In this document: in pieces, positions 1,942 to 59,027 of the stretch
Layout of the letters: every line of letters begins with the position of its first letter
Numbering within the stretch: the stretch's first letter is position 1
Assembly (NCBI GenBank): GCA_965247115.1
Contig: CBDFGR010000003.1
Coordinates: 224,001 to 288,000, forward strand
Length of the DNA stretch: 64,000 bases
Reading direction: 5' to 3'
Source of the DNA: Myxococcota bacterium
GTDB lineage: Bacteria > Myxococcota_A > UBA9160 > SZUA-336
Translations under genes and position numbers: made by a program
Notes under the pieces: model-generated
What the model was told of the DNA's origin: nothing
Seen by the model: the letters and a program-made list of their open reading frames with translations, nothing else
Databases searched by the model: none

Positions 1942-2295
1942 CTAGCGCTCGGAAGAGCAGAACTCGCGCAGCGCTTCGCGGGACTCCTCGCTGAGACCGA
2001 GCAGGCGAACGCCCATCCCGGCGCAGGGCCGGTCCTTGCCCGCGCAACGGCGCTGCCAGCGCACCTCTGCGTCGCAATCCAGGGGCTCTGGCTGACCTCG
2101 TACGTGGACGCGCAGCCGCAGCGGCGCACCAGCGGAGCGTATGTTCATGGATTGGATGAAGAGTCCGGTCTCGGAGACGCTGTCCGCATAGCCGAGAAAG
2201 CGCGGCCGCGTGAGCAGCCCAGACGGCGGCGCAAGCTCGACCCGAAGTGGACGGCGCAAGGTGCGTCGGGGCGCAGAAGACTGTTGCAGTTCCAT
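1942..2295 (-). CDS. Stand-alone PilZ-domain protein
   Basis: RRTLR (RxxxR) and SVSETGLFI motifs, AEVRW...GMGVR; ATG at 2295. Confidence 0.8.
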   Translation of the reverse strand: MELQQSSAPRRTLRRPLRVELAPPSGLLTRPRFLGYADSVSETGLFIQSMNIRSAGAPLRLRVHVRGQPEPLDCDAEVRWQRRCAGKDRPCAGMGVRLLGLSEESREALREFCSSER

Positions 2296-2302
2296 CGCCA
2301 AG

Positions 2303-2330
2303 AGATCGGACGCAGTGGTTTTCGGCTTGA
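2303..2330 (-). promoter_or_regulatory. Putative sigma-28-type promoter, leaderless, for the PilZ gene
   Basis: Minus strand TCAAG(2330-2326)-N16-CCGAT(2309-2305), then 9 nt to the ATG at 2295. Confidence 0.6.
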
Positions 2331-2350
2331 ACCCTTCTGCCTGCTTTCGA

Positions 2351-2380
2351 TTGACAATTGCTCGGAGGCCCTTGTAACGT
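2351..2380 (+). promoter_or_regulatory. Putative sigma-70 promoter for the GT/methyltransferase operon
   Basis: TTGACA-N18-TAACGT, 9 nt before the ATG at 2390. Confidence 0.55.
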
Positions 2381-2389
2381 CGCGCCGTC

Positions 2390-2692
2390 ATGCCCGATCG
2401 CGTCGATGAGCGCAGCAGGATTCTGGGAGGGCTCGTCTGTCTTGGAGCGGTCGCCGGGGGTGCGCTGTTCCTGTACGGCGTCGTCATCGAGAGCTACTGG
2501 GCTCTGGCCATCCCCGTTGCAGCTCTGCTCCTGTTCGTACTGGGGCTGGTGTTCTGGATCGGCTGGACCATCGCGACGGTTCAGGTGGAGGCTGAGGGCG
2601 AGCCTCTGGGCAGCGGCGGTGCAGGCGGGGCCACGCGACCCGACACACCAGCAGAGACTCCGGAGCCAGACCGAGCCGAGCACGACACGTAG
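2390..2692 (+). CDS. Small membrane protein with two TM segments
   Basis: Two hydrophobic stretches and an acidic tail; first gene of the operon. Confidence 0.7.
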   Translation: MPDRVDERSRILGGLVCLGAVAGGALFLYGVVIESYWALAIPVAALLLFVLGLVFWIGWTIATVQVEAEGEPLGSGGAGGATRPDTPAETPEPDRAEHDT

Positions 2693-2698
2693 CCCAGG

Positions 2699-3946
2699 AT
2701 GCGGATCGCCCTCCTGACGTATCGGGGCAACATGTTCTGCGGTGGCCAGGGCATCTACACCGCGAACCTCGCCCGCGAGCTCCACGCGCTCGGTCACGAG
2801 GTGCACATGATCTCCGGGCCACCGCTGCCCGAGCTCGAGCCAGACATTCCGCTCCACGAGATCCCGAACGGCAACTACTTCGCGCGCGACGTGGAGGAGC
2901 TGATGGAGGGACCGGACCCCTTCCACGCGCTGCTGCCCTCGAACCTGTGGGAGCTCGGCCTGACACGCCTGGGGGTCTTTCCGGAAATGACCGCGTTCGG
3001 GTTTCGCCTGCTGCTGCGCTGGAGAGCGCTGCAACGCCGCTATCAGTTCGACGTCGTTCTCGACAACCAGTCGCTCTCCTGGGGCCTGCTGGGCCTGCAG
3101 GCGACGGGCGTGCCCGTCGCGGCCATGGTCCATCACCCGCTCCACATCGACCGCCTGTCTGACTTCGAGCTCGAGCCGACCTTCCGCCGCAAGTGGAAGA
3201 GGACTCTCTACTTCCCGCTCTTCATGCAAGAGCTCGTCGTGCCGCGTCTGGCTCGGATCCTGACTGTGTCCCATGCCTCCGCGAACGAGATCGAGCGCTA
3301 CTTCCACATCCCGCGCAAGGAGATCTCCGTCGTCTACAACGGAACAGACGCGGAGACCTTCCGTCCGGTCCCCACCGGCAAGGAGGCCGACCTGATCTTC
3401 GTCGGACGCACGGAGGATCGCAAGAAGGGGATCCCGTACCTGCTTGACGCACTCGCCCTCGTGCCCGACCACGTCACGCTCAAGATCGTCGACGGGCGAA
3501 TCCCCTCGGACGGACTCGTTCGGACCAAGATCGAGGAGCTGGGGCTCGAGAAGCGCATCACGATCGTCGACCGCATGCTCGAAGTCGACGAGCTCGTCCG
3601 CGAGTACGCGACGGCCCGGGTCGCCCTGGTGCCCTCGTTCTTCGAAGGCTTCGGCTTTCCCGCCTCGGAGGCGATGGCCTGCGGCCTGCCAGTCATCGCG
3701 ACGGACGGCGGGGCGCTTCCAGAAGTCGTTGGAACGAGCGGCGAGACCGGCCGCATGGTCCCGTTCCGAGACCCCCCTGCGCTCGCCGCTGCCATTCGCG
3801 AGCTGTGCGCAAAATCCGACGACGACCTCGCAGCAATGGGTCGCCGCGCCCGCCGGCGCGTGCAGAGCACGTTTCGCTGGCGCGAGACCGCGCGCCAGAC
3901 GGCTCTAGTCCTGGAGGAGGTCGTGCGTGCTCACGGTCGACCTTGA
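2699..3946 (+). CDS. Glycosyltransferase family 4
   Basis: MRIALLTYRGNMFCGGQGIY N-terminus; EGFGFPASE (EX7E) motif. Confidence 0.92.
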   Translation: MRIALLTYRGNMFCGGQGIYTANLARELHALGHEVHMISGPPLPELEPDIPLHEIPNGNYFARDVEELMEGPDPFHALLPSNLWELGLTRLGVFPEMTAFGFRLLLRWRALQRRYQFDVVLDNQSLSWGLLGLQATGVPVAAMVHHPLHIDRLSDFELEPTFRRKWKRTLYFPLFMQELVVPRLARILTVSHASANEIERYFHIPRKEISVVYNGTDAETFRPVPTGKEADLIFVGRTEDRKKGIPYLLDALALVPDHVTLKIVDGRIPSDGLVRTKIEELGLEKRITIVDRMLEVDELVREYATARVALVPSFFEGFGFPASEAMACGLPVIATDGGALPEVVGTSGETGRMVPFRDPPALAAAIRELCAKSDDDLAAMGRRARRRVQSTFRWRETARQTALVLEEVVRAHGRP

Positions 3947-4637
3947 GCGGCTGGGAGTCCGAGAGGGAGACTGGCTGCTCGATGCCGGCTGCGGTGGCGG
4001 ACGCCACTGCTTCGGCGCGATCGACCGAGGAGCAAACGTCATCGGCGTGGACCTGGACGCGGAAGGACTCGGACTCGCACGCGCGGGGATCCACGAGCGG
4101 CGCGGGGTCACGCCGGAGCCGCATGGGGGAGTGCTGCGCGGCGACGTCTTCCACCTACCCTTCGACGACGCAGCGTTCGACCGTGTGATCTGCTCGGAGG
4201 TCATGGAGCACGTGCACGACTACCGCTCCGCCGTGGAGGAGCTCGTCCGTGTGCTCCGCCGCGGCGGGACGATCGGCATCACCATTCCGACGGCACCGAC
4301 CGAGCACGCCTATCTGTGGCTAACACGCTTCTACTTCGAGAGCCCAGGCGGACACATCCGGATCTTCCGGCCGCGCGATCTTGCGCTGGCGATGTCGCGC
4401 GCGGGCCTGCAGGTCGACGGCGTGAGCTTTGCGCACTCGCTCCACTCGCCCTACTGGGCCATCCGTGCGGTCCTTGGCCTGGATAACGAGTCGCTTGCGC
4501 CCACGCGCGCCTACCGCCGGTTCTTGCTGCACGCTGGCCAGTCCAGAACCTGGACCAGGATCGAGCGAGCGCTCGACTGGGTCTTCCCGAAGAGCTTGAT
4601 CCTGTACGGAACGAGGATCGCGACGGGAAGCAGCTGA
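3927..4637 (+). CDS. Class I SAM-dependent methyltransferase
   Basis: LLDAGCGGG motif I; LPFDDAAFDRVICSEVMEHV. Confidence 0.9.
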   Translation: MLTVDLERLGVREGDWLLDAGCGGGRHCFGAIDRGANVIGVDLDAEGLGLARAGIHERRGVTPEPHGGVLRGDVFHLPFDDAAFDRVICSEVMEHVHDYRSAVEELVRVLRRGGTIGITIPTAPTEHAYLWLTRFYFESPGGHIRIFRPRDLALAMSRAGLQVDGVSFAHSLHSPYWAIRAVLGLDNESLAPTRAYRRFLLHAGQSRTWTRIERALDWVFPKSLILYGTRIATGSS

Positions 4638-5890
4638 TGCGGGTCGCACTCGTCTGCTATCGCGGGAACATGGCGAGCGGTGGGCAGGGCATCTACCTGA
4701 CCTCACTGACGCGAGCTCTGGCAGAGCGCGGCGCCGAGATCGATGTCTTCGTTGGGCCCCCTTACCCCGACCCCCTGCCCTGGGCGCGCGTCTTCCGCCT
4801 GGAGAACCAGCGGTTCTGGGGGGCACGCTTTCGCAAGGAGCGCGACGCCTTTCTCCCCCGTCCCGACCCGTTCCGGATCTTCCACCCGCTGAACTTCTAC
4901 GAGTACGCGGTGACGCGCTTCGGGTATCTGCCGGAGCTCTTCGCGTTCAGTCTGCGCGCCGCCGCTGCACTCACGAGAGAGCTCAGATCGGGCCGACGCT
5001 ACGCGCTCGTACACGACGTGCAGTCGCTGGGCTATGGGCTGCTCTGGCTTCGGGCTCTCGGGCTCCCGGTCGTGAGCACGATTCACCACCCTCTCAGCGT
5101 CGATCGTACGATGAGCCTGAGACGCGACACGGGCTTCTCCGAGCGGAAGGGCACGCTGGCCTTCTATCCAGTGCGCACCCAGGCGCGCGTGGCACGACGG
5201 CTGGACGGGATCATCACCTCGAGCGCTGCCTCCTCCGAGCAGATCGCCCTCGGGTTCGGCGTGTCTCCCGCACGCATTCACAACGTGTTGAACGGTGTGG
5301 ACCTGCCGCGGCCGCGTCGCCCCCGAGGCCGCGCGGCGAGACCTGAGCTGCTCTTTGTCGGGCGAGCGAGCGATCCGAACAAGGGCCTCGAGTATCTGCT
5401 GTCCGCGCTGGCGCTCCTGCCCCGCGACGTGACGCTGCGGGTCCTCGACGGCTACCCAGCCGAGACGCCGATGGAGGCTCAGATCCGCGCGCTTCGTCTT
5501 GGCGACCGGGTGCGGTTCGAAGGGAAGCTTCCGCGGGCGAGTCTCGAGGAGGCCTTCCGCCGCGCCAGCATCGTCGTGCTGCCCTCGCTCTTCGAGGGCT
5601 TCGGCCTCCCAGCGCTGGAAGCCCTGGCGACCGGAACACCGGTCGTAGCCACGCGCGCCGGCGCCCTTCCCGAGGTCCTGGGCAGCGCAGGCGCCGGAAG
5701 ACTCGTGCCCGCGAGGGATGCCGCCGCCCTGGCAAAGGGAATCGGAGAGACGCTCGAGAGCTGGGACGACGCCCACCGGGACGCGCTCGCCGCGCGCGCG
5801 CGAATCGAGCGTGAGTTCGGCTGGGGCGAGGTCGCCCGGCGCGTGGAAGGGGTCTACGAGTCCATCCTCCGTAGGCGACCAACCCGATGA
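4637..5890 (+). CDS. Glycosyltransferase family 4 (paralog of 2699..3946)
   Basis: MRVALVCYRGNMASGGQGIY; EGFGLPALE. Confidence 0.92.
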   Translation: MRVALVCYRGNMASGGQGIYLTSLTRALAERGAEIDVFVGPPYPDPLPWARVFRLENQRFWGARFRKERDAFLPRPDPFRIFHPLNFYEYAVTRFGYLPELFAFSLRAAAALTRELRSGRRYALVHDVQSLGYGLLWLRALGLPVVSTIHHPLSVDRTMSLRRDTGFSERKGTLAFYPVRTQARVARRLDGIITSSAASSEQIALGFGVSPARIHNVLNGVDLPRPRRPRGRAARPELLFVGRASDPNKGLEYLLSALALLPRDVTLRVLDGYPAETPMEAQIRALRLGDRVRFEGKLPRASLEEAFRRASIVVLPSLFEGFGLPALEALATGTPVVATRAGALPEVLGSAGAGRLVPARDAAALAKGIGETLESWDDAHRDALAARARIEREFGWGEVARRVEGVYESILRRRPTR

Positions 5891-6756
5891 GGGTGATCGA
5901 TCTCGATCGGGATATGTCCGACGTGATCCCCAGTGCGGGCTCTCCCGACTCCGAATACCTGTTTCGACGCATGGAGCAGGCGACCCTGGAGGCGCTCGGT
6001 CCTCACGTGGGCGCCCGGATCCTCGATGCGGCGGGAGGGCTCGGCCAGGACAGTCGCACCCTGGTACGCCGCGGCGCCTGGGCCGTCTGCGCGGAGCCAT
6101 CGCGCCGCATGTCGGCGCTCGGACGCGAGATCGAGCGAGACGCCGAAGGTGTGCTGGGCCACGACACGACTCCCATCGCCTGGGCGCGTACGTGGGGCGA
6201 GAAGCTTCCCTTTCGCAGCGGTATCTTCGACGCCACCTTCTGCAAGGGTGCCCTCGACCACTTCGACGATCCCGAGCGCTGCATCGGCGAGCTTGCCCGC
6301 GTAACGCGCCCGCACGGACGGATCGTGCTCGCCGTCGCGAACTTCGACTCCCTCGCATGCAGGTTGCAGCGCGCGCTGGACAGGCTGCGCCCGGCCGCCG
6401 CCCGCGCAGGTCGCCGTTCCTACCACGTGCCCTCCGATCACTTCACTCGCTACGACACGACACTTCTGCGTGAACAGGCCGCGCGCCATCTCGTCATCGA
6501 GGAGTGGAAGGGCATCTCGCTCCTCTGGGGATTGCGGCCATGGTCGGCGCTGATGGGGGCCCTGGGAACGAGGGCGGCGCGGCTCGTGCTCCACTGGGCC
6601 GATCGAGTCGCGGCGAGGTTCCCCGCTCACTCCGACGTGATCCTCGTCGCGGGCCGGCCGATCCCTATGAGGACTGGCTCGGATTCAGCCCGTGTCTCGT
6701 CAGCTTGCGATACAGCGTGCTCCGGCCGATCCCCAAGAGCCTCGCCGCGGCCTTGA
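5887..6756 (+). CDS. Class I SAM-dependent methyltransferase
   Basis: ILDAAGGLG; LPFRSGIFDATFCKGALDHF; the last ~30 codons overlap the convergent gene, so the 3' end is uncertain. Confidence 0.8.
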   Translation: MRVIDLDRDMSDVIPSAGSPDSEYLFRRMEQATLEALGPHVGARILDAAGGLGQDSRTLVRRGAWAVCAEPSRRMSALGREIERDAEGVLGHDTTPIAWARTWGEKLPFRSGIFDATFCKGALDHFDDPERCIGELARVTRPHGRIVLAVANFDSLACRLQRALDRLRPAAARAGRRSYHVPSDHFTRYDTTLLREQAARHLVIEEWKGISLLWGLRPWSALMGALGTRAARLVLHWADRVAARFPAHSDVILVAGRPIPMRTGSDSARVSSACDTACSGRSPRASPRP

Positions 6757-8041
6757 CGTCTCCATCGACCCGGCTGAGCGCCTCCACCAGACAGGCTCGT
6801 TCGTAGCTCGGCAACGATAGGGGTATCCCTTCGGGAATGACCGCCAGCGGAGCGGAAGAATCCCCCAGCCGCAGATCCGCCTCCGTGAGGCGCGGGCCTC
6901 GCGCCAGGGCTACGGCTGCCTCGATCGCGTTCTCGAGCTCTCGGACGTTGCCATCCCAGCGACAGGCGAGGAGCTTCTCCAGCGCGCCCTGGTCGATGCC
7001 CTCGATCCCGCTGCGCTCGCCCGTACGAGCCAGGAAGTGCTGCGCGAGCAACGCGATGTCCTCCGGTCTCTCGCGCAGGGGCGGAAGCTGAATCGACACG
7101 ACGCGGAGTCGGTAGAAGAGGTCGGAGCGAAAGCGGCCTGTTCGCATGTCGCTCGCCAGGTCGCGATTGGTTGCGGCGACGATCCGGACGTCGATCGGCA
7201 CCACCTCAGTCGCGCCGAGCGGGCGGACCTCGCGCGCCTGAATGGCGCGCAGCAGCTTTGACTGCAGCAAGAGGGCCAGCTCACCGATCTCGTCGAGAAA
7301 CAGGGTTCCGCCGTTCGCGCTGCGGAACAGGCCGAGCGCAGACCGAGCCGCTCCCGTGAAGGCGCCCGCCTCGTAGCCGAATAGCTCGCTTTCAACGAGC
7401 CCCTCGGGCAGCGCTCCACAGTCGACCGGAATGAAGGGTCCGTTCGCGCGGCGCGAAGTCATGTGGATCGCCCGAGCCACGAGCTCTTTGCCCGTACCAC
7501 TCTCCGCCTGAATGAGTACGTTGCTCTCGTTCTGCGACAGGTCACGGATCATGCCCAGCACGGAATCCATCTTCGGGGAGCACGCCACTATGCCCGCAAG
7601 CACGTCTGGCTCCTCGGCCGGGCCAGGTCCGAGGCGACGGCGGCGCCGCTCCAGCGCCCGCCGCAACGCCCTCACGATCTGGCCGGAGTCCTCGGGCTGC
7701 TTCCCCACATAGTCCGACACGCCCGCGTGCCTACACTCGGGCGTGTCGACCGAAGCGTGGCCCGTCAGCACGACGATCTCGGACTTTGGCGAACGGCTTC
7801 GAATCTCGCCGATCAGCTCTGGCCCGGACGAGCGCTCCAGCCCGAGATCGATGAGGACCACTTCGGGCTCGTGCCTGAGCTGCTCGCGGAGAGTCCGGAG
7901 GTCCGAGGCCTCCAGCCCCTCGAGCCCCTCTCCCTCGACCTGCTTCCGCAAGCTGCAAAGGACGTGCGGCTCCTGGTCCACCAGAAGCGCCCGCGCCCGG
8001 CGAGGCCTCGCAGGATCTCGAGCGTGCGACTCGTCGTCCAT
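6665..8041 (-). CDS. Sigma-54-dependent activator (receiver-AAA+-HTH, NtrC family)
   Basis: ESGTGKE, GAFTGA, LFLDEIG, FRSDLFYRL, GNVREL, C-terminal AARLLGIGRSTLYRKL; receiver slightly atypical (VDQE). Confidence 0.93.
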   Translation of the reverse strand: MDDESHARDPARPRRARALLVDQEPHVLCSLRKQVEGEGLEGLEASDLRTLREQLRHEPEVVLIDLGLERSSGPELIGEIRSRSPKSEIVVLTGHASVDTPECRHAGVSDYVGKQPEDSGQIVRALRRALERRRRRLGPGPAEEPDVLAGIVACSPKMDSVLGMIRDLSQNESNVLIQAESGTGKELVARAIHMTSRRANGPFIPVDCGALPEGLVESELFGYEAGAFTGAARSALGLFRSANGGTLFLDEIGELALLLQSKLLRAIQAREVRPLGATEVVPIDVRIVAATNRDLASDMRTGRFRSDLFYRLRVVSIQLPPLRERPEDIALLAQHFLARTGERSGIEGIDQGALEKLLACRWDGNVRELENAIEAAVALARGPRLTEADLRLGDSSAPLAVIPEGIPLSLPSYERACLVEALSRVDGDVKAAARLLGIGRSTLYRKLTRHGLNPSQSS

Positions 8042-8049
8042 CGCCCGGG

Positions 8050-8077
8050 TGATCGGAGGACGCGGGGCGCCGCTTGA
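8050..8077 (-). promoter_or_regulatory. Putative sigma-28-type promoter, leaderless, for the NtrC-like gene
   Basis: Minus strand TCAAG(8077-8073)-N16-CCGAT(8056-8052), then 10 nt to the ATG at 8041. Confidence 0.6.
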
Positions 8078-8125
8078 GGGTCCCTCACCACTAGCCTACA
8101 TTCGAAACCGCTGCTGGGGGGAGGA

Positions 8126-9507
8126 ATGATCCGCGGAACGATTCTGATCGTTGACGACGATGCGTTGTTCCGCGAGGCGCTGACGCGCTATCTGGACGCT
8201 TCCGGCCATGACGTCACCTCCGTGGGAGATCCTCAAAGCGCCGTACAGAAGCTCGAAGAGGGCGCGTTCGAGCTGGTCCTCACCGATCTCAAGATGCCAG
8301 GCATGGACGGCATCGCCCTGATCGAGCGCATCCAGCAGGTTGATCCGGACATCCTCTCGATCGTGATCACGGGCTTCGGCACCACCGATCGCTCGATCGA
8401 GGCCCTCAATCGGGGCGCCTTCTGGTTCATCGACAAGAGCTACGACCGGATCTCGAGCTTTGGCCCGCTCGTGGACAAAGCGCTCGAGTTCCGAAGGCTC
8501 AAAACGTCGAATCGACAGCTCCAACGTCAGCTCCAGGCGAAGTACGGACTGTCCAGCATCATCGGAGAGAGCGAGCCGATCTACCTGATGCTCGACATGA
8601 TTCGAAGGGTCGCGCCGACCGAAGCGCGCGTGCTGATCATTGGTGAGAGCGGTGCGGGCAAGGAGCTGGTCGCTCGCGCAATTCACTACAACAGCGCGCG
8701 CGCCGAGCGTCCCCTGGTCGCCGTCAACTGCGGCGCGGTTCCCGAGGAGCTGCTAGAGAGCGAGCTCTTCGGGCACGTGAAGGGATCCTTCACGGGCGCC
8801 ATTCGTGACCGCGAGGGCCGTTTCCGCGCCGCGGAGGGCGGGACGCTGTTCCTGGACGAGATCGGCGACATGAGCCCGTCGCTGCAGATCAAATTGTTGC
8901 GCGTGATCCAGGAGATGGAGTACGAGCCAGTGGGCTCGTCCAAGACCATGAGCGCCGACGTTCGCATCATCACGGCAACGAACCAGAACCTGCCGGAGCT
9001 GATCAAGGAGAAGCGCTTTCGCCAGGACCTGTACTTCCGCTTGAACGTCGTACCCATCGAGGTACCCCCACTTCGCGAGCGCCGCGAGGATATCTCTCTG
9101 CTGGTCGAGCACTTTCTCAAGCAGCAGCGACGCAGCTATCCGGAGCTGAAGGGCATCGACGCGCCCGCGCTCAAGCGCCTCACGAACTACGACTGGCCGG
9201 GCAACGTGCGCGAGCTCGAAGGTCTGATCGAGCGACTCTCCATCATGCGACGCGAGGGTTGGATCGCAGAAGAGGAGCTGCCGCCGGAGCTGACCGGCAC
9301 AGCGCAGATCAACCGTCGATCACGATTCCTCCCGACGGTGTCGACTTCGAAGGACTCGTGGACAGCTTCGAGTCCGACCTGATCCTCCAAGCCCTGGAAG
9401 CGACGGGCTGGAACAAGAACCGTGCTGCGAAGCTCCTCAACCTGAAGCGAACGACGCTTGTCGAGAAGATCCGCTCGAAGGGCCTTACGAAGCCGCCTGG
9501 CCTCTAG
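8126..9507 (+). pseudogene. Sigma-54-dependent activator (FleQ/FlrA-like HTH), frameshifted near 9295-9315
   Basis: Receiver and AAA+ (GESGAGKE, GSFTGA, GNVREL) in frame 8126..9382; the HTH (ALEATGWNKNRAAKLLNLKRTTLVEKIR) lies in the -1 frame ending at TAG 9505-9507; may be a sequencing indel. Confidence 0.85.
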
Positions 9508-10783
9508 CAGGCTGCGGAGAAAGTGACTGGTTGAGGGGTGGTCCTTCCGACGAGGGGGTTCACCGGCCGAGGGGCGGGGCGCGATTCCCGGTTCGAACCG
9601 GTCTTGGGCTCCGCTGATCGCGGGGCGGTTTCGCACATGACCTACGTGGCCTCCAGCAGCTTGCGGATCCGGATCAGGTTGTAGGCTGCGGCCGTGAAGG
9701 TGAAGACCCAGCCGACCCGATCCGTGCCGCGGTGTCGGGTCTTGCGCATCAGCCCCACGGTCTTCATCCAGCCGAAGACCTCTTCCACCCGTTTGCGAAA
9801 ACGCTGACTCAGTTCGTAGCCCCGGTGGCGCGTCGTCCGCCCGTCGATCGCGCTGCGTCGATTCGTCGTGTTCTGCGCCACGTGTGGGGTCACGCCCAAC
9901 TCTCGAAGCTCTTCCACGAACCCCTTCGTGTCGAAGCCCTTGTCTCCGCCCAATGTCCTCCGACGCCCGCCTCCCAGACCTTCCACCATCTCGAGCGCCG
10001 CTTCGCGCTCCGCATATCCCGACGCCTGCGTGAGCTTCGCCGCGACCACCAAGCCGTTCCGGTTCTCCGTCACCACGTGTCCCTGGTACGCGAGTCGGGC
10101 GCCTTGGCCTCTCATACCGGCGAGTCGTGCGTCGGGATCCGTCGTCGACGCATGCGTCTGGTTGCTCCGCTTCTCGCCTCGGAAGTTCACCGTCGGGTTG
10201 CCCGGGTCATCGTCGTCTCTCCGTTCCTCGTCCTTCCGTACGAAGCTCTTCTGGCTCGCCCACGCCTCGATCAGCGTCCCGTCTACCGTGAAGTGCTCCA
10301 ACGACACCCATCCCTCGGTCTCGGCCTGCTCCAGCACTGCGTCGAAGAAGTGCTCGGCAATCTCGCCCTTGAGCAGCCGGTCTCGGTTCTTCGTGAACAC
10401 CGTGGCGCTGAACACCACCTCGTCAAGCTCCAGACCCACGAACCAGCGATACAGCAGGTTGTACTCCAGCTGCTCCACCAGCTGCCGCTCGCTCCGGATG
10501 GTGTAGAGCACCTGCAGCAGCAGGGCGCGCAGCAGCTGCTCCGGGGGCACGGACGGGCGCCCTACGCCTCTGGCGTAGATCGCGTCGAAGCGCGGCGATA
10601 GCCGCTGCAGCGCCGTGTCGACCATGCGCCGCATCGCTCGAAGCGGATGATCATCCGGAATCCGCGACTCCAGCGACACGTAGCTGAACATCCCGCCCTG
10701 AAGCGTCCCCTGTCCTCTCACGCCTCCCCCTTTGGGGCTCGCTCCCAAGGTACCCTTCGATGAGGAGTTTTTCAGCAGCCTGC
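9507..10783 (-). mobile_element. IS5-family insertion sequence, copy 1 (1277 bp)
   Basis: Terminal IRs GCAGGCTGCGGAGAAAGT / GCAGGCTGCTGAAAAACT (15/18); TA on both flanks; same sequence recurs at 57751..59027. Confidence 0.92.
9642..10721 (-). CDS. IS5-family DDE transposase
   Basis: GRPSVPPEQLLRALLLQVLYTIRSERQL N-domain; VDGT, GDKGFD and RKRVEEVFG catalytic motifs; GTG start after GGGGGAGG. Confidence 0.93.
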   Translation of the reverse strand: MRGQGTLQGGMFSYVSLESRIPDDHPLRAMRRMVDTALQRLSPRFDAIYARGVGRPSVPPEQLLRALLLQVLYTIRSERQLVEQLEYNLLYRWFVGLELDEVVFSATVFTKNRDRLLKGEIAEHFFDAVLEQAETEGWVSLEHFTVDGTLIEAWASQKSFVRKDEERRDDDDPGNPTVNFRGEKRSNQTHASTTDPDARLAGMRGQGARLAYQGHVVTENRNGLVVAAKLTQASGYAEREAALEMVEGLGGGRRRTLGGDKGFDTKGFVEELRELGVTPHVAQNTTNRRSAIDGRTTRHRGYELSQRFRKRVEEVFGWMKTVGLMRKTRHRGTDRVGWVFTFTAAAYNLIRIRKLLEAT

Positions 10784-10838
10784 TAAGCACGATCGCGGGC
10801 CAGGGTGACGATTCCGTAACACCTCGAAGCCGGAAACT

Positions 10839-10852
10839 GTCAAGGATCTGAC
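10839..10852. promoter_or_regulatory. Candidate enhancer (FleQ-box-like palindrome)
   Basis: GTCA-AGGATC-TGAC, ~140 bp upstream of the sigma-54 promoter. Confidence 0.45.
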
Positions 10853-10990
10853 TCTCGGGAGGCCCGTTCCACCGCGCTCGCGCGGTCTCTCAAGGCTCCC
10901 GAGCGGCTGCTCTTCCGCCGCGACCTCAACGGCTTCGAGCGCCGCGCTGCGCAGAAACGAGTGCCTGCTGAGCCGGAGCTCATGCCTCCA

Positions 10991-11006
10991 CGGCACCTGA
11001 CTTGCA
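10991..11006 (+). promoter_or_regulatory. Sigma-54 (-24/-12) promoter of fliA
   Basis: CGGCACCTGACTTGCA = GG-N10-GC, close to TGGCAC-N5-TTGCW; 66 nt before the fliA ATG, which has a GGAGG RBS. Confidence 0.7.
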
Positions 11007-11072
11007 CATGTAGCGACCTCCACACGGAAGCTGGACCTGGCTTGTTGCGCCCACGGATTCGGGAGGTCACTG

Positions 11073-11828
11073 ATGGAGGCACTGCTGCGGGAAGCGCGGG
11101 AAAACCATGACGGGATCCCGGCGGAGCTGAAGGAGAAAATCGTTCTTCAGCACACGCCGCTGATCCGGTACATCGTCAATCGAATTGCCATACGTCTTCC
11201 ATCGCACATCGACCTTGACGACCTTCACAACACGGGCGTGATCGGCTTGATGGATGCGATCGACAAGTACGATCCCAACAAGAATTGCAAGTTCAAGACC
11301 TATGCGGAGTTCCGCATCAAAGGCGCGATTCTGGACCAGCTGCGTTCGCTCGATTGGGTGCCACGGTCGATCCGCCAGAAGAGCCGTCGACTCGAGCAGG
11401 CCTACACCGAAGTGGAACAGCGACTCGGTCGTTCCGCAACAGAGCACGAGGTTGCCGGGTCGCTTGGAATCGAGCTCGACGAGTTTCACTTTCTGCTGAA
11501 CCAGGTCCGCGGGATCTCGATGATCAATCTGGACGAGCTTCGCTCCGGGGCCGACTCGGACCAGCCGATGCACGGCGACATCTTCGAGGACGTGAAGGCG
11601 GAGAACCCCTTCATCTCGTTGAAGTCACGCGAGATGCGCCAGGCGGTGGCCGAGTGCATCGGGATCCTGCCGGAGAAGGAGCGACTCGTGATTTCGCTCT
11701 ACTACTACGAGGATCTGAACATGAAGGAGATCGGAAACGTCCTCGGCATCACCGAGTCTCGTGTGTGTCAGATCCACACAAAGGCGGTCGCTCGTCTGCG
11801 CTCGAAGCTCAGAACACTGCTCACCTGA
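11073..11828 (+). CDS. fliA: RNA polymerase sigma factor FliA/WhiG (sigma-28)
   Basis: RLPSHIDLDDL, FKTYAEFRIKGAILDQLRSLDWVPRSIR, LYYYEDLNMKEIGNVLGITESRVCQIH. Confidence 0.95.
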   Translation: MEALLREARENHDGIPAELKEKIVLQHTPLIRYIVNRIAIRLPSHIDLDDLHNTGVIGLMDAIDKYDPNKNCKFKTYAEFRIKGAILDQLRSLDWVPRSIRQKSRRLEQAYTEVEQRLGRSATEHEVAGSLGIELDEFHFLLNQVRGISMINLDELRSGADSDQPMHGDIFEDVKAENPFISLKSREMRQAVAECIGILPEKERLVISLYYYEDLNMKEIGNVLGITESRVCQIHTKAVARLRSKLRTLLT

Positions 11829-11878
11829 CGCAAGGCGGCCGGAAGAGCACCAGGAGTGGTCCGGGCGGCGAAGAATGC

Positions 11879-11905
11879 TAAAGATGTTCGCGGTCTTCCC
11901 GATAA
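11879..11905 (+). promoter_or_regulatory. Sigma-28 promoter of flgM
   Basis: TAAA-N15-CCCGATAA versus canonical TAAA-N15-GCCGATAA. Confidence 0.75.
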
Positions 11906-11934
11906 CAGAGGGGACCTTCGCGAGGAGATCGGAG

Positions 11935-12138
11935 ATGCCAAAGAAGACCCGTGCGGACCTGATCCCCCCGGTCGAGGTCGAAGACCTCTACTCGCCTGAA
12001 TACTTGAAAGACTGCGCCGATGAGGAGGCGCGCCAGGGGCGTCTGGAAGAGCTGAAGCGCAGGATCGAGCTCGGCGCCTACAAGGTCGACCCCGACTCGG
12101 TAGCCCTCCACATGATGGGCCGCGTCGACCTGGACTAG
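11935..12138 (+). CDS. flgM: Short FlgM-like anti-sigma-28 factor (67 aa)
   Basis: RQGRLEELKRRIELGAYKVDPDSVALHM matches the FlgM C-terminal helices; adjacent to fliA; GAGGAG RBS. Confidence 0.75.
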   Translation: MPKKTRADLIPPVEVEDLYSPEYLKDCADEEARQGRLEELKRRIELGAYKVDPDSVALHMMGRVDLD

Positions 12139-12140
12139 TC

Positions 12141-12417
12141 TGCCTTGTGGGACCCGGCGCGCGAGCGGTCGCGCGCCACCCACCTCCGCTCAGGCCCTCG
12201 GCCTTCGCTGCGCGCGCCGCGTCCGCGGCGCTTGCCTTGTGGGACCCGGCCGCGGGCGGCCGCGGCCACCCACCTCCGCTCAGGCCCTCGGCCTTCGCTG
12301 CGCGCGCCGCGTCCGCGGCGCTTGCCTTGTGGGACCCGGCCGCGGGCGGCCGCGGCCACCCACCTCCGCTCAGGCCCTCGGCCTTCGCTGCGCGCGCCGC
12401 GTTCCGCGGCGCTTGCA
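12141..12417. repeat. Three tandem ~90-bp REP-like units between convergent genes
   Basis: Units start at 12141, 12233 and 12323 (TGCCTTGTGGGACCCGGC...CACCCACCTCCGCTCAGG...GCGGCGCT); same family as the arms at 267-358 and 612-735. Confidence 0.9.
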
Positions 12418-12465
12418 CGGTCGCCTCCACGCTGTACTGGCGCTTCTTCACGGGACCCGAAGACC

Positions 12466-13197
12466 CTAACCAGCCAGATAGACGACTACGGCGGTGGCGT
12501 TGTCTCGGCCGCCGCTGGCGTTCGCGGCGTCGATGAGGCGAGTCGCGGCCAGGGCGGGGTCGTGCCACCAGCGCGAGAGAATCTCGTGAATTGTCGGGTC
12601 TTCCAGCTGGGCGCTGATCCCGTCTGTGCAGAGCAATAGGGAGTCGCCCTCCTCGACGCGGAGCGCGCCGATGTCCGCCTCGACGGCGTCGACCACGCCG
12701 AGGGCCCGCGTGATCACGTGGCGGTCGGGGTGCTTGCGAGCCTCTTCTTCGGACAGCTCGTGGTGGGCGATCATCTCCCCTACCGTCGAGTGATCGCTCG
12801 TGAGCCGGTAGAGTACTCCACCTCGAAGCAGATAGACGCGACTGTCTCCCACGTTCACCAATGTCGCCGTAGGGCGGTCGATCCACACGGCTGCCAGCGT
12901 CGTTCCCATACCCTCGAGGTCCGGCGCTCGGTGGACGGCCTCGCGGATCTCGCCGTTCGCAAGCCGCGCGGCCCGGCGAATCGCGCTCGTTCGGTCCATC
13001 AGGGGGGAATTGTCGAGAGCGTCACAGAACGACGTGACGCCGATCTTCGAGGCGCGGCTGCCCGCCACGTGGCCTCCGAGACCATCCGCGACCACAAAGA
13101 GTCCCCTCTCGGGCAGATTGGCGAGAGAGTCCTCGTTGACCTGACGGGTACACCCTACATCGGTACGCCCGGCCGAGATGAAGCGAAAGCCCGTCAC
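12466..13197 (-). CDS. PP2C-family Ser/Thr protein phosphatase
   Basis: TDVG, NEDS, VADGLGGH, GMGTT, NVGDSRVY, LCTDG, GGRDNAT; start GTG 13197 (alternative ATG 13209). Confidence 0.92.
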   Translation of the reverse strand: MTGFRFISAGRTDVGCTRQVNEDSLANLPERGLFVVADGLGGHVAGSRASKIGVTSFCDALDNSPLMDRTSAIRRAARLANGEIREAVHRAPDLEGMGTTLAAVWIDRPTATLVNVGDSRVYLLRGGVLYRLTSDHSTVGEMIAHHELSEEEARKHPDRHVITRALGVVDAVEADIGALRVEEGDSLLLCTDGISAQLEDPTIHEILSRWWHDPALAATRLIDAANASGGRDNATAVVVYLAG

Positions 13198-13206
13198 CGC
13201 TTCAGG

Positions 13207-13233
13207 CATCGGGCGGCGGCCGCGACGCCTTGA
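13207..13233 (-). promoter_or_regulatory. Putative sigma-28-type promoter, leaderless, for PP2C
   Basis: Minus strand TCAAG(13233-13229)-N16-CCGAT(13212-13208), then 10 nt to the GTG at 13197. Confidence 0.55.
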
Positions 13234-13302
13234 CCGAGTTCGGGCGCACCAAGCGGTGAATCTGGTATCGTTCCGCGCCAAGCTGCAAGCCATCGTGACC
13301 AT

Positions 13303-13330
13303 TCAACCGATCACGCACTTCGACCGATAG
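13303..13330 (+). promoter_or_regulatory. Putative sigma-28-type promoter for romR
   Basis: TCAAC-N16-CCGATAG, ~54 nt upstream of the ATG at 13384. Confidence 0.5.
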
Positions 13331-13383: not shown

Positions 13384-14625
13384 ATGCCCAAGACCCTACT
13401 CCTGGCCGACGACAGTGTGACGATCCAGAAGGTGGTCGGCATCACGTTCGCGAATGAGGACGTGGAGCTCGTGACGGCTCCCAACGGGGACGACGCGCTG
13501 CGGAAGGCGCGCGAGCTCAAGCCGGACCTCGTGCTGGCAGACATCGGAATGCCCGGGCTCGATGGCTACGAGCTGTGCGCGGCCATTCGCCAGGAGCCTG
13601 AGCTGGCGAGCATCCCGGTTCTCCTCTTGACGGGTACCTTCGAGACCTACGACGAAGAGCGCGCAACCGAGGTCGGTGCGAGCGCGTACATCGCCAAGCC
13701 CTTCGAGGCACAGGCGCTGATCGATCAGGTGAACACCCTGCTGAACGCCCCGCCGGAGGTTGGCGCCCCCGATCCGGAGCCAGGTGACGACGTCGAGGCA
13801 GACAGCCCCAGTGCGAATCCCCAGCACGTGCTTGGCGCCGTGCAGCTGTCTAGGGCCGGAGTCCACGAGGGCGGAGCCGATAAGACGCTGCCCTCGGCCG
13901 AGGCTCCCGATCTGCTGGAAGGTCCTCTCGGCGCTCCCCTACCCCCGCCTGCAGGAGCGCCTGCGCCTTCGTCGGACCTCAGCTTCGAGGACCTGGACTT
14001 CCAGGGCGCGCCCGCGGGCGAGTCTGGCTCGAACACTCAGATCTTCGGCGATGCGCCGACATTTGGCTCCGACTTGAGCGGCCGTGAGAAGAGCTCCACT
14101 CCGGAGCCGGTTGCCGAGGCGATGGACACGGACCACGGCTTCGACCACAACGGCGAGACGGCGTTTCTCGATCCGATGCTGCTCCCCACGAAGCCGGACC
14201 AGGAGCCGCTGGATGACACCAGGGACGACGCCCGTACCCCAGCCAGCAGCTCACCATTCGCGGGCCTGGACGCCGCCTCCGGCGCCGCCCTGGGGAGTCC
14301 GGACGAGACGGTGATCGACACTCCCGAGGTCTTACCGGATCCCGAGCCGCTGCAGACGATGAGCTTTCCGCCGGAGTCCACGCCCGGCGAGTCCGCTCTC
14401 CTGGACCAGGCTGCCCGCAGCGCGGGACCGCAGGCGCCGCTCGACCGACAGGCGATCTCGAGCGCGATCGAGAAGCTGGCCTGGGAGGCGTTCGGCAACC
14501 TCTCGGAGGAGCTGGTTCGCGAGGTGGTCAAGAAGGTCGAGTCGATTGCCTGGGAAGTCGTGCCGGTGCTGGCCGAGCGCATGCTCCAGGAAGAGATCGA
14601 CAAGCTCAAGGGCGGACCCGAATAG
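13384..14625 (+). CDS. romR: RomR-like polarity response regulator
   Basis: N-terminal receiver MPKTLLLADDSVTIQKVVGITF, long Pro/acidic linker, C-terminal ESIAWEVVPVLAERMLQEEI typical of RomR. Confidence 0.85.
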   Translation: MPKTLLLADDSVTIQKVVGITFANEDVELVTAPNGDDALRKARELKPDLVLADIGMPGLDGYELCAAIRQEPELASIPVLLLTGTFETYDEERATEVGASAYIAKPFEAQALIDQVNTLLNAPPEVGAPDPEPGDDVEADSPSANPQHVLGAVQLSRAGVHEGGADKTLPSAEAPDLLEGPLGAPLPPPAGAPAPSSDLSFEDLDFQGAPAGESGSNTQIFGDAPTFGSDLSGREKSSTPEPVAEAMDTDHGFDHNGETAFLDPMLLPTKPDQEPLDDTRDDARTPASSSPFAGLDAASGAALGSPDETVIDTPEVLPDPEPLQTMSFPPESTPGESALLDQAARSAGPQAPLDRQAISSAIEKLAWEAFGNLSEELVREVVKKVESIAWEVVPVLAERMLQEEIDKLKGGPE

Positions 14626-20384: not shown

Positions 20385-21182
20385 ATGGGTGTGCTGAACC
20401 GCGAGGCGCGGGAGATTCACGCCAAGATCGTCTACTACGGCCCCGCCGAGGCGGGAAAGACGACGAACCTCGAGTTCATCCATCGCAAGCTCAAGCGTGA
20501 GCACCGCGGCGACCTGCAGGTCAGCCGCATCGGCAGCGATGCCGCCTACGAGTTCGTCCCCGTCACGCTGGGCAGCGTCCGCGGCTACTCGACGTCGATC
20601 CACGTCTACACGGTGCCCAGCGGAGACGAACACCTGGAGCTTCGCCGTCAGATTCTGGACGGCACGGATGGTGTCGTCTTCGTCGCAGATCTGCGCCCCG
20701 AGAGGCACGACGCCACCATCGCAGCGGCGGCCGAGCTCAAGGAGCACCTGGATAGCTACGGACGCTCCTTCGACGAGATCGTACTCGTCATCCAGTACAA
20801 CAAACGCGGCACAACCAACGAGAATGCCCTCGACGAGCTGCACAAGCGGCTCGGCCTCGACCCGGAGGCCTACTTCGAGGCCGTCGCGAACCAGGGCACG
20901 GGCGTCCTGCAGACCCTGACCACGCTCTCCAAGCAGATCCTGTCCAACATCCGACAGGCCGCAGAGAAGGAGCCTCCCAGCGACGCTGCGGTTCCACTGG
21001 CGCGAGTGGAGCTGACCCAGCTGTCCGCCGACGAGCCCGTAGCGCACGGTGGCTTCTGCCTCGAGAGCGCAGGACCGGTCGAAGCGAGTGGCGGCGAGCT
21101 GACGATCCCCATCCTGCTGAGCGAGAGCGAATCGGGGCAGAAGGTGGAGCTCTGCCTACGGCTGAGCATCTCCGAGAGCTGA
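20385..21182 (+). CDS. MglA-like small GTPase, degenerate, with C-terminal extension
   Basis: REIHAKIVYYGPAEAGKTTNL, YTVPSG, DGVVFVAD, IQYNKRG, FEAVA. Confidence 0.85.
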   Translation: MGVLNREAREIHAKIVYYGPAEAGKTTNLEFIHRKLKREHRGDLQVSRIGSDAAYEFVPVTLGSVRGYSTSIHVYTVPSGDEHLELRRQILDGTDGVVFVADLRPERHDATIAAAAELKEHLDSYGRSFDEIVLVIQYNKRGTTNENALDELHKRLGLDPEAYFEAVANQGTGVLQTLTTLSKQILSNIRQAAEKEPPSDAAVPLARVELTQLSADEPVAHGGFCLESAGPVEASGGELTIPILLSESESGQKVELCLRLSISES

Positions 21183-55477: not shown

Positions 55478-55840
55478 CTACAAGACCTCTTCCGACTCGG
55501 GAAGGACGTCGCGCAGCAGCTCCTGAGTCTCAGAGTCGACGTCGATGAAGCTGAGCGCGACCTCCTGCGAGAAGGCGTCGAGCTCGGTCACCCGGACCAG
55601 AGTCCCCACCACGCTGACCGTCCTGTCGCTCAGATTCAGCTGCACCCGCACGGTCTCGCCCGGATCGAGCTCCAGGCCCACGCACTGAAAGCGCACGCCA
55701 GCCATCGAGAGGTCCAATGCGTGAGCCAGCCCTCGGGGTCTGGAAACGCGCTCGATCGACACGACCGACTCCGTCATCACTCGCGGATACTTCCGGCGGT
55801 CGAAGCTTTGATCCGTCTTCACGAGGGTGCCTTCCGGCAC
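55478..55840 (-). CDS. Stand-alone PilZ-domain protein
   Basis: DRRKYPR and DLSMAG c-di-GMP motifs; start 55840 or 55822. Confidence 0.85.
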   Translation of the reverse strand: MPEGTLVKTDQSFDRRKYPRVMTESVVSIERVSRPRGLAHALDLSMAGVRFQCVGLELDPGETVRVQLNLSDRTVSVVGTLVRVTELDAFSQEVALSFIDVDSETQELLRDVLPESEEVL

Positions 55841-55885
55841 CTCTCTTCGGGCGGATCGCAGCGGCGACTTTAGCGGCGGAAGACG

Positions 55886-56944: not shown

Positions 56945-57750
56945 CTACTCTCGAGACGGACGCAGTTCCCAGGATCCGACTCGATGATAGGCGACGTCGC
57001 TCTCGTGTATCCAGAGGGTCTGGGGACTGCCCGCCAGCCAGGCAGCGAGCCCGTCGTCGTAGTGCTCGCTACCGGAGTGGCCAGATTGCCCCCCGGCCAG
57101 GCCGAACTGCGCATGACCCGGATCCGCCAGATCGACCGCGTATCGCAGTCCGGGGCCCACGTAGGCGCCTTTGCGCAGGAGCTCGCCGTGATACATCGTC
57201 CAGATCGAATCGGGATCCCCACCGACGGGATGTGGACCCCGACCCAGGGCTCGACCCAGCCAACGGATGCGACCGTGGCCGAGCTGCTCGAAAGCATGGC
57301 GGAGCCGCAGCTGATGGAGCGCCCCCCAACCCCAGCGGCCGGGATTCGTGCCGACCTCGGCCTGCAAAAAACGCCACGTCTTCACCAGCGCCAACTCCAC
57401 CACCGCGGTCGTTGCCGCCGGGCGTGCTCGATCCAGAAGGCGCTCTAGGATGACACCCGGCAAGGGCTCAGAAGCGGCCAGGATCTCGTCCCCCCAGTCT
57501 GAGCCCAGACGCGCGTTGAGCAGCTCGCGGGTCAGCTCGTGACGGAAGACGTGGTACACGAGCGCTCCCCGCGAGGCCGTGTCCGTTCGACCGTCCCACT
57601 CGCGCAGAATCGTCCGCAGTGTGACGGCATTTGCAGACTTCAGCTCGACAGCATCGAAGAGCTCGCGGACGACATGTCGGCCGCGCTCCGACTCCTGCTC
57701 TCGCTGCAGCGCGAGCACGCGAGCGAGCTCGAACGGTGGGCCCTCGCCTA
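56945..57750 (-). pseudogene. Penicillin acylase (peptidase S45) 3' fragment truncated by the IS
   Basis: LREWDG, WGWGALH, GPGLRYAVDL, GGQSGHSGSEHYDD; 5' two-thirds absent. Confidence 0.85.
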
Positions 57751-59027
57751 GCAGGCTGCGGAGAAAGTGACTGGTTGAGGGGTGGTCCTTCCGACGAGGG
57801 GGTTCACCGGCCGAGGGGCGGGGCGCGATTCCCGGTTCGAACCGGTCTTGGGCTCCGCTGATCGCGGGGCGGTTTCGCACATGACCTACGTGGCCTCCAG
57901 CAGCTTGCGGATCCGGATCAGGTTGTAGGCTGCGGCCGTGAAGGTGAAGACCCAGCCGACCCGATCCGTGCCGCGGTGTCGGGTCTTGCGCATCAGCCCC
58001 ACGGTCTTCATCCAGCCGAAGACCTCTTCCACCCGTTTGCGAAAACGCTGACTCAGTTCGTAGCCCCGGTGGCGCGTCGTCCGCCCGTCGATCGCGCTGC
58101 GTCGATTCGTCGTGTTCTGCGCCACGTGTGGGGTCACGCCCAACTCTCGAAGCTCTTCCACGAACCCCTTCGTGTCGAAGCCCTTGTCTCCGCCCAATGT
58201 CCTCCGACGCCCGCCTCCCAGACCTTCCACCATCTCGAGCGCCGCTTCGCGCTCCGCATATCCCGACGCCTGCGTGAGCTTCGCCGCGACCACCAAGCCG
58301 TTCCGGTTCTCCGTCACCACGTGTCCCTGGTACGCGAGTCGGGCGCCTTGGCCTCTCATACCGGCGAGTCGTGCGTCGGGATCCGTCGTCGACGCATGCG
58401 TCTGGTTGCTCCGCTTCTCGCCTCGGAAGTTCACCGTCGGGTTGCCCGGGTCATCGTCGTCTCTCCGTTCCTCGTCCTTCCGTACGAAGCTCTTCTGGCT
58501 CGCCCACGCCTCGATCAGCGTCCCGTCTACCGTGAAGTGCTCCAACGACACCCATCCCTCGGTCTCGGCCTGCTCCAGCACTGCGTCGAAGAAGTGCTCG
58601 GCAATCTCGCCCTTGAGCAGCCGGTCTCGGTTCTTCGTGAACACCGTGGCGCTGAACACCACCTCGTCAAGCTCCAGACCCACGAACCAGCGATACAGCA
58701 GGTTGTACTCCAGCTGCTCCACCAGCTGCCGCTCGCTCCGGATGGTGTAGAGCACCTGCAGCAGCAGGGCGCGCAGCAGCTGCTCCGGGGGCACGGACGG
58801 GCGCCCTACGCCTCTGGCGTAGATCGCGTCGAAGCGCGGCGATAGCCGCTGCAGCGCCGTGTCGACCATGCGCCGCATCGCTCGAAGCGGATGATCATCC
58901 GGAATCCGCGACTCCAGCGACACGTAGCTGAACATCCCGCCCTGAAGCGTCCCCTGTCCTCTCACGCCTCCCCCTTTGGGGCTCGCTCCCAAGGTACCCT
59001 TCGATGAGGAGTTTTTCAGCAGCCTGC
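57751..59027 (-). mobile_element. IS5-family insertion sequence, copy 2 (1277 bp)
   Basis: Same IRs, length and translated ORFs as 9507..10783; TA (CTAG context) at both ends. Confidence 0.92.
57886..58965 (-). CDS. IS5-family DDE transposase
   Basis: Protein identical to 9642..10721. Confidence 0.93.
   Translation of the reverse strand: MRGQGTLQGGMFSYVSLESRIPDDHPLRAMRRMVDTALQRLSPRFDAIYARGVGRPSVPPEQLLRALLLQVLYTIRSERQLVEQLEYNLLYRWFVGLELDEVVFSATVFTKNRDRLLKGEIAEHFFDAVLEQAETEGWVSLEHFTVDGTLIEAWASQKSFVRKDEERRDDDDPGNPTVNFRGEKRSNQTHASTTDPDARLAGMRGQGARLAYQGHVVTENRNGLVVAAKLTQASGYAEREAALEMVEGLGGGRRRTLGGDKGFDTKGFVEELRELGVTPHVAQNTTNRRSAIDGRTTRHRGYELSQRFRKRVEEVFGWMKTVGLMRKTRHRGTDRVGWVFTFTAAAYNLIRIRKLLEAT

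Follow-up and report, generated by a model that had tools for sequence, protein, structure and literature searches.

Broad regulons of the flagellar sigma factor sigma-28 (FliA) are already known from Bdellovibrio and Rubrobacter. In Bdellovibrio bacteriovorus the FliA consensus is TTAAG-N16-CCGATA, assigned to 92 of 140 mapped promoters, with TCAAG forms among them; Table S2 places +1 about 9 nucleotides (nt) past CCGAT, and in 20 FliA rows, counted by eye, transcription begins at the very first base of the gene (PMC3627812). Two reports present this FliA as a phase regulator (attack phase) and its knockout as lethal (PMC3627812, PMC5430801). E. coli reporters have already been used for Bdellovibrio FliA. 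In Rubrobacter radiotolerans WhiG, a sigma-28-family factor, is predicted to drive genes for type IV pili and cyclic di-GMP (c-di-GMP) enzymes (PMC8325347). Here we describe a motif of this kind in a 64,000-nt stretch of a Myxococcota genome (contig CBDFGR010000003.1, positions 224,001 to 288,000; this whole stretch is referred to as the window), where a fliA gene lies beside romR, and in the whole genome under study (G000). An earlier note on this DNA had proposed that the local FliA controls mostly leaderless signalling and polarity genes from TCAAG-N16-CCGAT. We find a real, conserved, class-wide sigma-28-type regulon. T(C/A)AAG-N16-CCGAT is probably the -35/-10 promoter read by FliA, which would place flagellin, the pilus motor, MglA/MglB/RomR and c-di-GMP and Ser/Thr signalling genes in one programme.

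The window contains three exact matches to TCAAG-N16-CCGAT, all on the minus strand and each 9 or 10 nt before an in-frame start (Table 1), just as the earlier note had described. In 100 shuffled windows the mean was 0.13 matches and three were never reached. Both of the proposed variants were also located, TCAAC-N16-CCGATAG before romR (13303-13330) and TAAAG-N15-CCGATAA before flgM (11879-11905). All five listed sites are real, but a sixth, before a second PilZ gene, had been overlooked; the GC content, put at about 68%, is 66.0%. Across G000, for which our simple gene caller gave 4852 genes, 41 of 53 matches to TMAAG-N16-CCGAT lie upstream of a gene against a background of 7%. The upstream share was 10/25 with N15, 4/5 with N17 and 0-19% with N10-14 and N18-22. 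A weight matrix placed 102 of its 147 N16 matches upstream, with 18 upstream matches at N15, 9 at N17 and 4-11 at control spacers. Held-out matrices, trained on one part of the genome and tested on the other, had 33/42 and 42/71 matches upstream at N16 and 0-7 at control spacers. After removal of overlaps 122 scored sites (about 110 genes) were left, with the consensus T(C/A)AAG-N16-CCGAT. A chance origin was ruled out by shuffles, control spacers, the opposite strand and held-out training; the enrichment near gene starts for which a genome scan had been suggested is thus present and specific to the spacer. The bipartite -35/-10 consensus, with a fixed spacer and on the same strand as the gene, is as expected of a sigma-28 promoter. 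At -35, however, TCAAG is commoner than TAAAG, and the GC preceding CCGAT is weak.

By our tally over the 122 first genes, five are flagellar (fliC, a second flagellin, motAB, the flgN-flgK-flgL operon and flgM). PilZ genes account for 16 sites; 16 of the 26 PilZ genes carry one, compared with 9 of 250 random genes. Nine sites are related to pili or secretins: pilB-pilT-pilC with a sensor/regulator pair, a helix-turn-helix (HTH) gene with pilMNOP, an ABC-transporter unit beside pilA, a PilT-family gene, three prepilins, a PilY1 unit and a secretin-N gene. Polarity or cytoskeletal genes have five (romR, mglB-mglA, a bactofilin, divIVA and an MJ0042 zinc ribbon), Ser/Thr signalling genes seven (two kinases, four FHA, one PP2C) and c-di-GMP or HDOD genes six. 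The identity of MglA is secured by its match to solved structures (E 9e-101). Among the remaining targets are regulatory genes, enzymes of the envelope, a number of metabolic genes and many family-less ones; the site list thereby flags dozens of family-less genes as motility or polarity candidates. pilA and flgF carry sigma-54-type sites in place of sigma-28 sites. The motif stands before fliC, motAB, flgKL and flgM and matches the mapped Bdellovibrio FliA consensus, which supports the original sigma-28 reading.

Conservation at orthologous loci was scored as a matrix score of at least 14. Loci were fetched, G000 included, for 30 of the 36 genomes with a pilB match and 30 of the 38 with an mglB match. 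The site precedes pilB in 30/30 and mglB in 28/30 (control, 0-1/30), so the link to surface motility and polarity genes drawn in the earlier note is borne out, in a regulon much larger than the window shows. The gene order ntrC-fliA-pp2c-romR is largely retained in 20 fetched fliA regions. Orthologs keep the site at pilZ (8/8), ntrC_A (15/16), pp2c (14/16) and flgM (11/11, plus 6/6 in further loci), against 1/19 for the negative control ntrC_B; the suggested ortholog check therefore came out in favour of the motif. We note that in one locus (L116, genome G010) flgM and the ntrC pair seem inverted relative to fliA, with the sites retained.

The class provides natural experiments in which the flagellum is lost and the regulon kept, a FliA copy is replaced, or the sigma factor, pili and promoters are lost jointly. 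FliA is present in 30/30 high-quality genomes, whereas flagellin and FlhA are each found in the same 14 of the 30. The 16 high-quality genomes without flagellin are also those without FlhA, which makes an assembly artefact unlikely. An N16 count of twice an N19 control or more is seen in 13/14 flagellated and 13/16 non-flagellated genomes, with medians of 42 vs 12 and 44 vs 7, respectively. Flagellin-negative genomes have the pilB site in 12/12 and the mglB site in 14/14 cases. The picture of a flagellar sigma factor "redeployed" is therefore half right. In flagellum-less relatives only non-flagellar targets can remain, but flagellar targets are still in the G000 regulon, and G000 itself, having flagellin and flhA, is not a flagellum-less host. 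Site loss alongside FliA is seen in two genomes. G012 (89% complete) has no match to FliA, flagellin, pilB, mglB or PF00437, and 2 motif vs 10 control matches, where its congener G020 has 42 vs 6. G132 (91% complete) is without FliA and has 2 vs 4 matches and one PF00437 match.

The sites could also be sigma-28 promoters of a life-stage switch for hunting or dispersal, as in Bdellovibrio, with pili and polarity only a part of the programme. This is possible, though we lean against it. In its favour, the targets include rho, lon, an Hsp70, a 482-aa sigma-70-family gene and divIVA, as well as proteases and lytic transglycosylases; FliA identity within the class is 70-96%, and Bdellovibrio FliA is such a regulator. 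Against this, G012 has lost FliA and the pilus ATPases alike and G132 comes close to the same state, so that FliA looks dispensable once pili are lost. Its absence from these two genomes also argues against essentiality across the class. The life-stage reading is compatible with FliA promoters shared by flagellin, pilus motor and polarity genes, and both can be true. The sites before the sigma-70-family gene (L242, G000:C2:1050666-1052114), rho and lon (L274, L045) suggest a second regulatory tier.

G000 has two FliA genes that are 70% identical, copy a in the window and copy b at G000:C3:523166-523924. Against TIGR02479 copy b scores 278.4 bits, copy a 278.9, and both match Pfam regions 2, 3 and 4 only. 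FliA residues D88, R91 and R98, which we take to be the promoter-reading residues, are invariant in 24 sequences. In the 6PMI alignment they fall on E. coli D81, R84 and R91. Copy a is the class-wide one, syntenic with flgM, pp2c and romR, while copy b has a patchy distribution and branches as a separate clade in the tree; this pattern would suit a system in which copy a alone reads the sites and copy b has a different job. We consider that unlikely. Regions 2.4 and 4.2 are common to both copies nearly letter for letter, and both genes are preceded by a sigma-54-type site. Moreover, copy a is missing between ntrC_B and flgM on one contig in six genomes (G011, G016, G019, G022, G023 and G024), which keep the sites at pilZ, ntrC_A and flgM (6/6 each), pp2c (5/5) and romR (2/5). 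Five of the six have copy b by tree; the G011 fragments could not be placed. Because these genomes retain the sites, the local FliA is not required, and the assignment of control to it in the earlier note does not stand as worded. An 81-aa open reading frame without a Pfam or NCBIfam family (L032:8981-9226) lies downstream of fliA copy b, and also in 6/6 other fetched copy-b loci (56-66% identity); it is possibly a regulator of that copy.

Several observations weigh against promoters read by FliA in a single programme. FliA dependence is inferred from sequence, the sole RNA run (X20) consisting of scattered short contigs. We expect some 10-20 false sites among the 122, gene starts rest on our in-house caller and some first genes are clearly metabolic. 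The genomes compared are related metagenome-assembled genomes, so that counts are not independent and absences are possibly assembly gaps. Clean FliA loss is limited to G012 and G132, which are smaller genomes (3.4 and 2.2 Mb). G035 has FliA and no excess (32 vs 35), and in G013, G025 and G032 the N16 excess is below twofold. G009 and G010 have no good site at mglB, and romR reaches the threshold in 10/20 orthologs, the other 10 scoring 11.8-13.8. Finally, G165 (96% complete) shows 22 vs 7 matches and a pilB site although its fliA is reduced to the 3′ third; it is also without both ntrC genes, and the truncation perhaps reflects a recent deletion, if not a misjoin. The retained G165 sites, the five other sigma-70-family proteins of G000 that score against FliA, the preference for TCAAG over TAAAG and the weak GC would all suit a different sigma factor or DNA-binding protein as the reader, the likeness to sigma-28 being incidental. 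We judge this very improbable, since the flagellin, flgM, motA and flgK operons carry the motif, the mapped Bdellovibrio promoters (TCAAG forms included) match it, and it is lost along with FliA in G012 and G132. That the sites are just a conventional class-3 flagellar regulon plus some stray matches, or a pattern thrown up by chance in GC-rich DNA, is hardly credible: codon bias within genes does yield 12-26 matches at some other spacers, but these are not upstream of genes, and neither the 5/122 flagellar share nor the sites of the flagellin-negative genomes would be expected.

With FliA as the probable reader of both flagellar and non-flagellar sites, a control circuit can be proposed from the arrangement of sites. 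A sigma-54-type site precedes fliA in 31/31 loci by a loose pattern and 18/31 by a strict one, against a background of 32/4852 gene upstream regions. A sigma-54 activator would switch on fliA from this conserved -24/-12 site; on the basis of position alone, this is likely the adjacent NtrC_B. Autoregulation by FliA was considered and rejected, a sigma-28 site being upstream of fliA in just 1/29 loci; copy b has such a site at three loci. The promoters would then be read by either FliA copy, with +1 predicted about 9 nt past CCGAT and roughly a fifth of the transcripts, including pilZ and ntrC_A, leaderless. FliA may feed back on sigma-54 by way of ntrC_A and of the sensor/regulator pair that follows pilB-pilT-pilC; pilA itself has a sigma-54-type site. 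The FlgM-like protein, itself a target, would damp the loop in family f1.

The earlier description of the genes as "mostly leaderless" did not hold. An in-frame ATG or GTG lies 8-11 nt past CCGAT, no more than 2 nt from the predicted +1, at 22 of 119 sites (the 122 minus three with tiny open reading frames), successive 4-nt bins holding 1, 6, 22, 6 and 5. Of these 22 candidates 19 have no later start led by a Shine–Dalgarno sequence, the +1 itself being predicted. The 9-11 nt geometry is kept at pilZ (8/8) and ntrC_A (15/15), but in only 4/14 pp2c orthologs, and leaders are present at romR (ATG 55 nt past the site) and flgM (31 nt). Judged from these spacings, a conserved leaderless minority of transcripts is likely.

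The single FlgM-like gene of G000 adjoins fliA. The usual position of flgM is between the rod-binding gene and flgN, and it is absent there from the flagellar cluster (L033:12519-13318, G000:C3). The PF04316 match of the protein spans profile positions 23-54 only, corresponding to the C-terminal sigma-binding helices; there is no NCBIfam match, and those to FlgM in the PDB are weak (E 0.052 and 0.26). The gene tracks family, occurring in 20/24 genomes of f1, including 9/11 flagellin-negative ones, and in 0/16 of other families, seven of them flagellated. It does not co-occur with the flagellar export gate; Pfam scores are weak and the misses may reflect divergence. Since the gene is kept where the export gate is absent, its product may be released by an export-free route such as proteolysis or partner switching. 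We put forward tentatively, as an idea that is possible but somewhat less likely than not, that throughout the class sigma-28 serves primarily as the master regulator of type IVa pili and of MglAB/RomR polarity, with the flagellum optional, and that the f1 FlgM-like protein is an anti-sigma factor released without flagellar export.

The coordinates of the features are collected in Table 1. The gene identities given in the earlier note (PilZ, two sigma-54 activators, FliA, FlgM, PP2C and RomR) all hold by family scans or architecture, FlgM by a weak match. RomR is defined by a receiver domain (REC), a Pro-rich linker and a Glu-rich RomR-C (PMC3441718); REC, a variable Pro-rich linker and the Glu-rich tail are all present here, the tail being kept in 22/23 loci, with one ending early. 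A comparison of the tail with the PDB gave no meaningful match.

Table 1 Features of the window (positions within the 64,000 nt)
Feature	Position	Strand	Basis or remark
pilZ, single-domain PilZ gene	1942..2295	(-)	PF07238 E 1.2e-9; RxxxR present; D/NxSxxG (second c-di-GMP motif) unmatched
sigma-28-type site TCAAG-N16-CCGAT before pilZ	2305..2330	(-)	ATG (2295) 9 nt downstream
ntrC_A, REC-AAA+-HTH sigma-54 activator	6665..8041	(-)	GAFTGA motif
sigma-28-type site before ntrC_A	8052..8077	(-)	ATG (8041) 10 nt downstream
ntrC_B, sigma-54 activator, GSFTGA	8126..9507	(+)	frameshift near 9298; without sigma-28 site (negative control)
IS5-family insertion, strain-specific, outside regulon	9506..10785	(-)	family scan
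sigma-54 -24/-12 type site before fliA	10992..11006	(+)	pattern match
fliA (sigma-28), copy a	11073..11828	(+)	TIGR02479 278.9 bits, cut-off 189.6
sigma-28-type site TAAAG-N15-CCGAT before flgM	11879..11903	(+)	exact pattern
FlgM-like short protein, 67 aa, predicted anti-sigma-28	11935..12138	(+)	PF04316 29.6 bits, cut-off 25
pp2c, Stp1/IreP-type PP2C Ser/Thr phosphatase, GTG start	12466..13197	(-)	NF033484 230.8 bits, cut-off 230
sigma-28-type site before pp2c	13208..13233	(-)	GTG (13197) 10 nt downstream
weaker sigma-28-type site TCAAC-N16-CCGAT before romR	13303..13328	(+)	leader 55 nt
romR, of REC–linker–RomR-C organisation	13384..14625	(+)	domain architecture
second PilZ gene, both c-di-GMP motifs	55478..55840	(-)	family scan and motif check
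sixth site TAAAG-N17-CCGAA, before second PilZ gene	55846..55872	(-)	matrix scan

The ntrC_B frameshift splits off a C-terminal piece, and the frame is intact in contigs of runs X4 and X7, from related strains. These also lack the IS5 between ntrC_B and fliA, while X1, perhaps the source sample, matches the window. Given the insertion and the frameshift, the upstream activator may be impaired in this strain. A second IS5-family copy occupies about 57750-59027 of the window, and there are 28 full copies genome-wide. A putative small GTPase gene at 20385-21182 (+), with an MglA-like N-terminus by eye, is not preceded by a site, but a second putative gene of the MglA type, at G000:C1:152299, is. 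Arrays of REP-like (repetitive extragenic palindromic) repeats lie at about 235-730 and 12140-12420; the 92-nt unit has 168 matches in the genome, and its contig depth in public runs is very high.

In a sample of the phylum, FliA of at least 70% identity was found in 26/28 genomes of the same class, and 56/122 others had a match, all at 53% or less. We surveyed 80 mglB loci, four of which were dropped (one without mglB, three with short upstream DNA); 23 of the 80 were placed on a tree and the others assigned outside by an MglB identity of 60% or less. In the tree the class stands apart from the Geobacter, Polyangia and Anaeromyxobacter groups. The mglB site is present in 4/4 named loci inside the class clade and 1/72 outside, with 0/19 Geobacter/Desulfuromonadales-type, 0/20 Polyangia-type and 0/1 Anaeromyxobacter loci by title, and wiring across the phylum was therefore rejected. 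The strong mglB site outside the clade is in L161. The N19 control was run for two genomes outside the class: G041 (FliA 53% identical) has 50 N16 vs 22 N19 matches and G156 has 74 vs 48; we draw no claim from the counts outside the class. G041 and L161 indicate that such wiring may exist in other lineages.

A canonical class-3 regulon has targets confined to flagellum and chemotaxis and a sigma factor tied to flagellar genes. Here flagellar genes are 5/122 of the first genes, and romR is the neighbour of fliA and flgM, which are outside the flagellar cluster and about 29 kb away from the pil cluster. The system does share features with the predicted cascade of Geobacter sulfurreducens, which has sigma-54 sites before fliA, flagellar rod genes and pilA, and sigma-28 sites before flagellin, motAB, flgKL and flgM (PMC2725144). 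Rubrobacter WhiG has 12 mapped promoters compared with about 110 here, and the available text reports no MglAB/RomR module. Two paralogous sigma-28 clades, WhiG1 and WhiG2, also occur in Actinomycetota (PMC12871210). The WhiG anti-sigma factor is c-di-GMP-armed RsiG with the motif E(X)3S(X)2R(X)3Q(X)3D; none was seen by eye in our 21-sequence FlgM-like alignment, the genome not having been searched for RsiG. The regulon is thus not a canonical class-3 one, gives no sign of a WhiG-RsiG switch and is Bdellovibrio-FliA-like.

Precedent for broad sigma-28 regulons, and the fact that these organisms are uncultured, limit the significance of the result. Sigma-28 control of the type IVa pilus motor and of MglAB/RomR was not found in print; we found no report of it in Myxococcota in a search made mostly without subscription papers, and how expression of the pilus motor is coordinated with that of MglA/MglB/RomR is not described for myxobacteria in the literature searched. 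Like the Bdellovibrio FliA regulon, the present one has the same motif, more than 90 promoters, many non-flagellar targets and some leaderless transcripts (20 rows there, candidates at 22/119 sites here). The Bdellovibrio targets include Bd1891, a gene of the NtrC family, as well as genes of type IVb pili. In contrast, the 140 promoters include none for romR (Bd2761), mglA (Bd3734), pilB (Bd1509) or pilT (Bd1510), genes at which the sites here are conserved, and here the regulon persists in genomes without flagellar genes. The Bdellovibrio expression columns, whose order we infer from the flagellin and fliA rows, give reads per kilobase per million (RPKM) in the flagellin/fliA phase vs the opposite phase of 2 vs 642 for romR, 7 vs 193 for mglA, 6 vs 42 for pilB and 5 vs 19 for pilT. 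If our reading is true, one sigma factor coordinates swimming, twitching and polarity in this class, the reverse of the Bdellovibrio arrangement, in which romR, mglA and pilB do not belong to the FliA phase.

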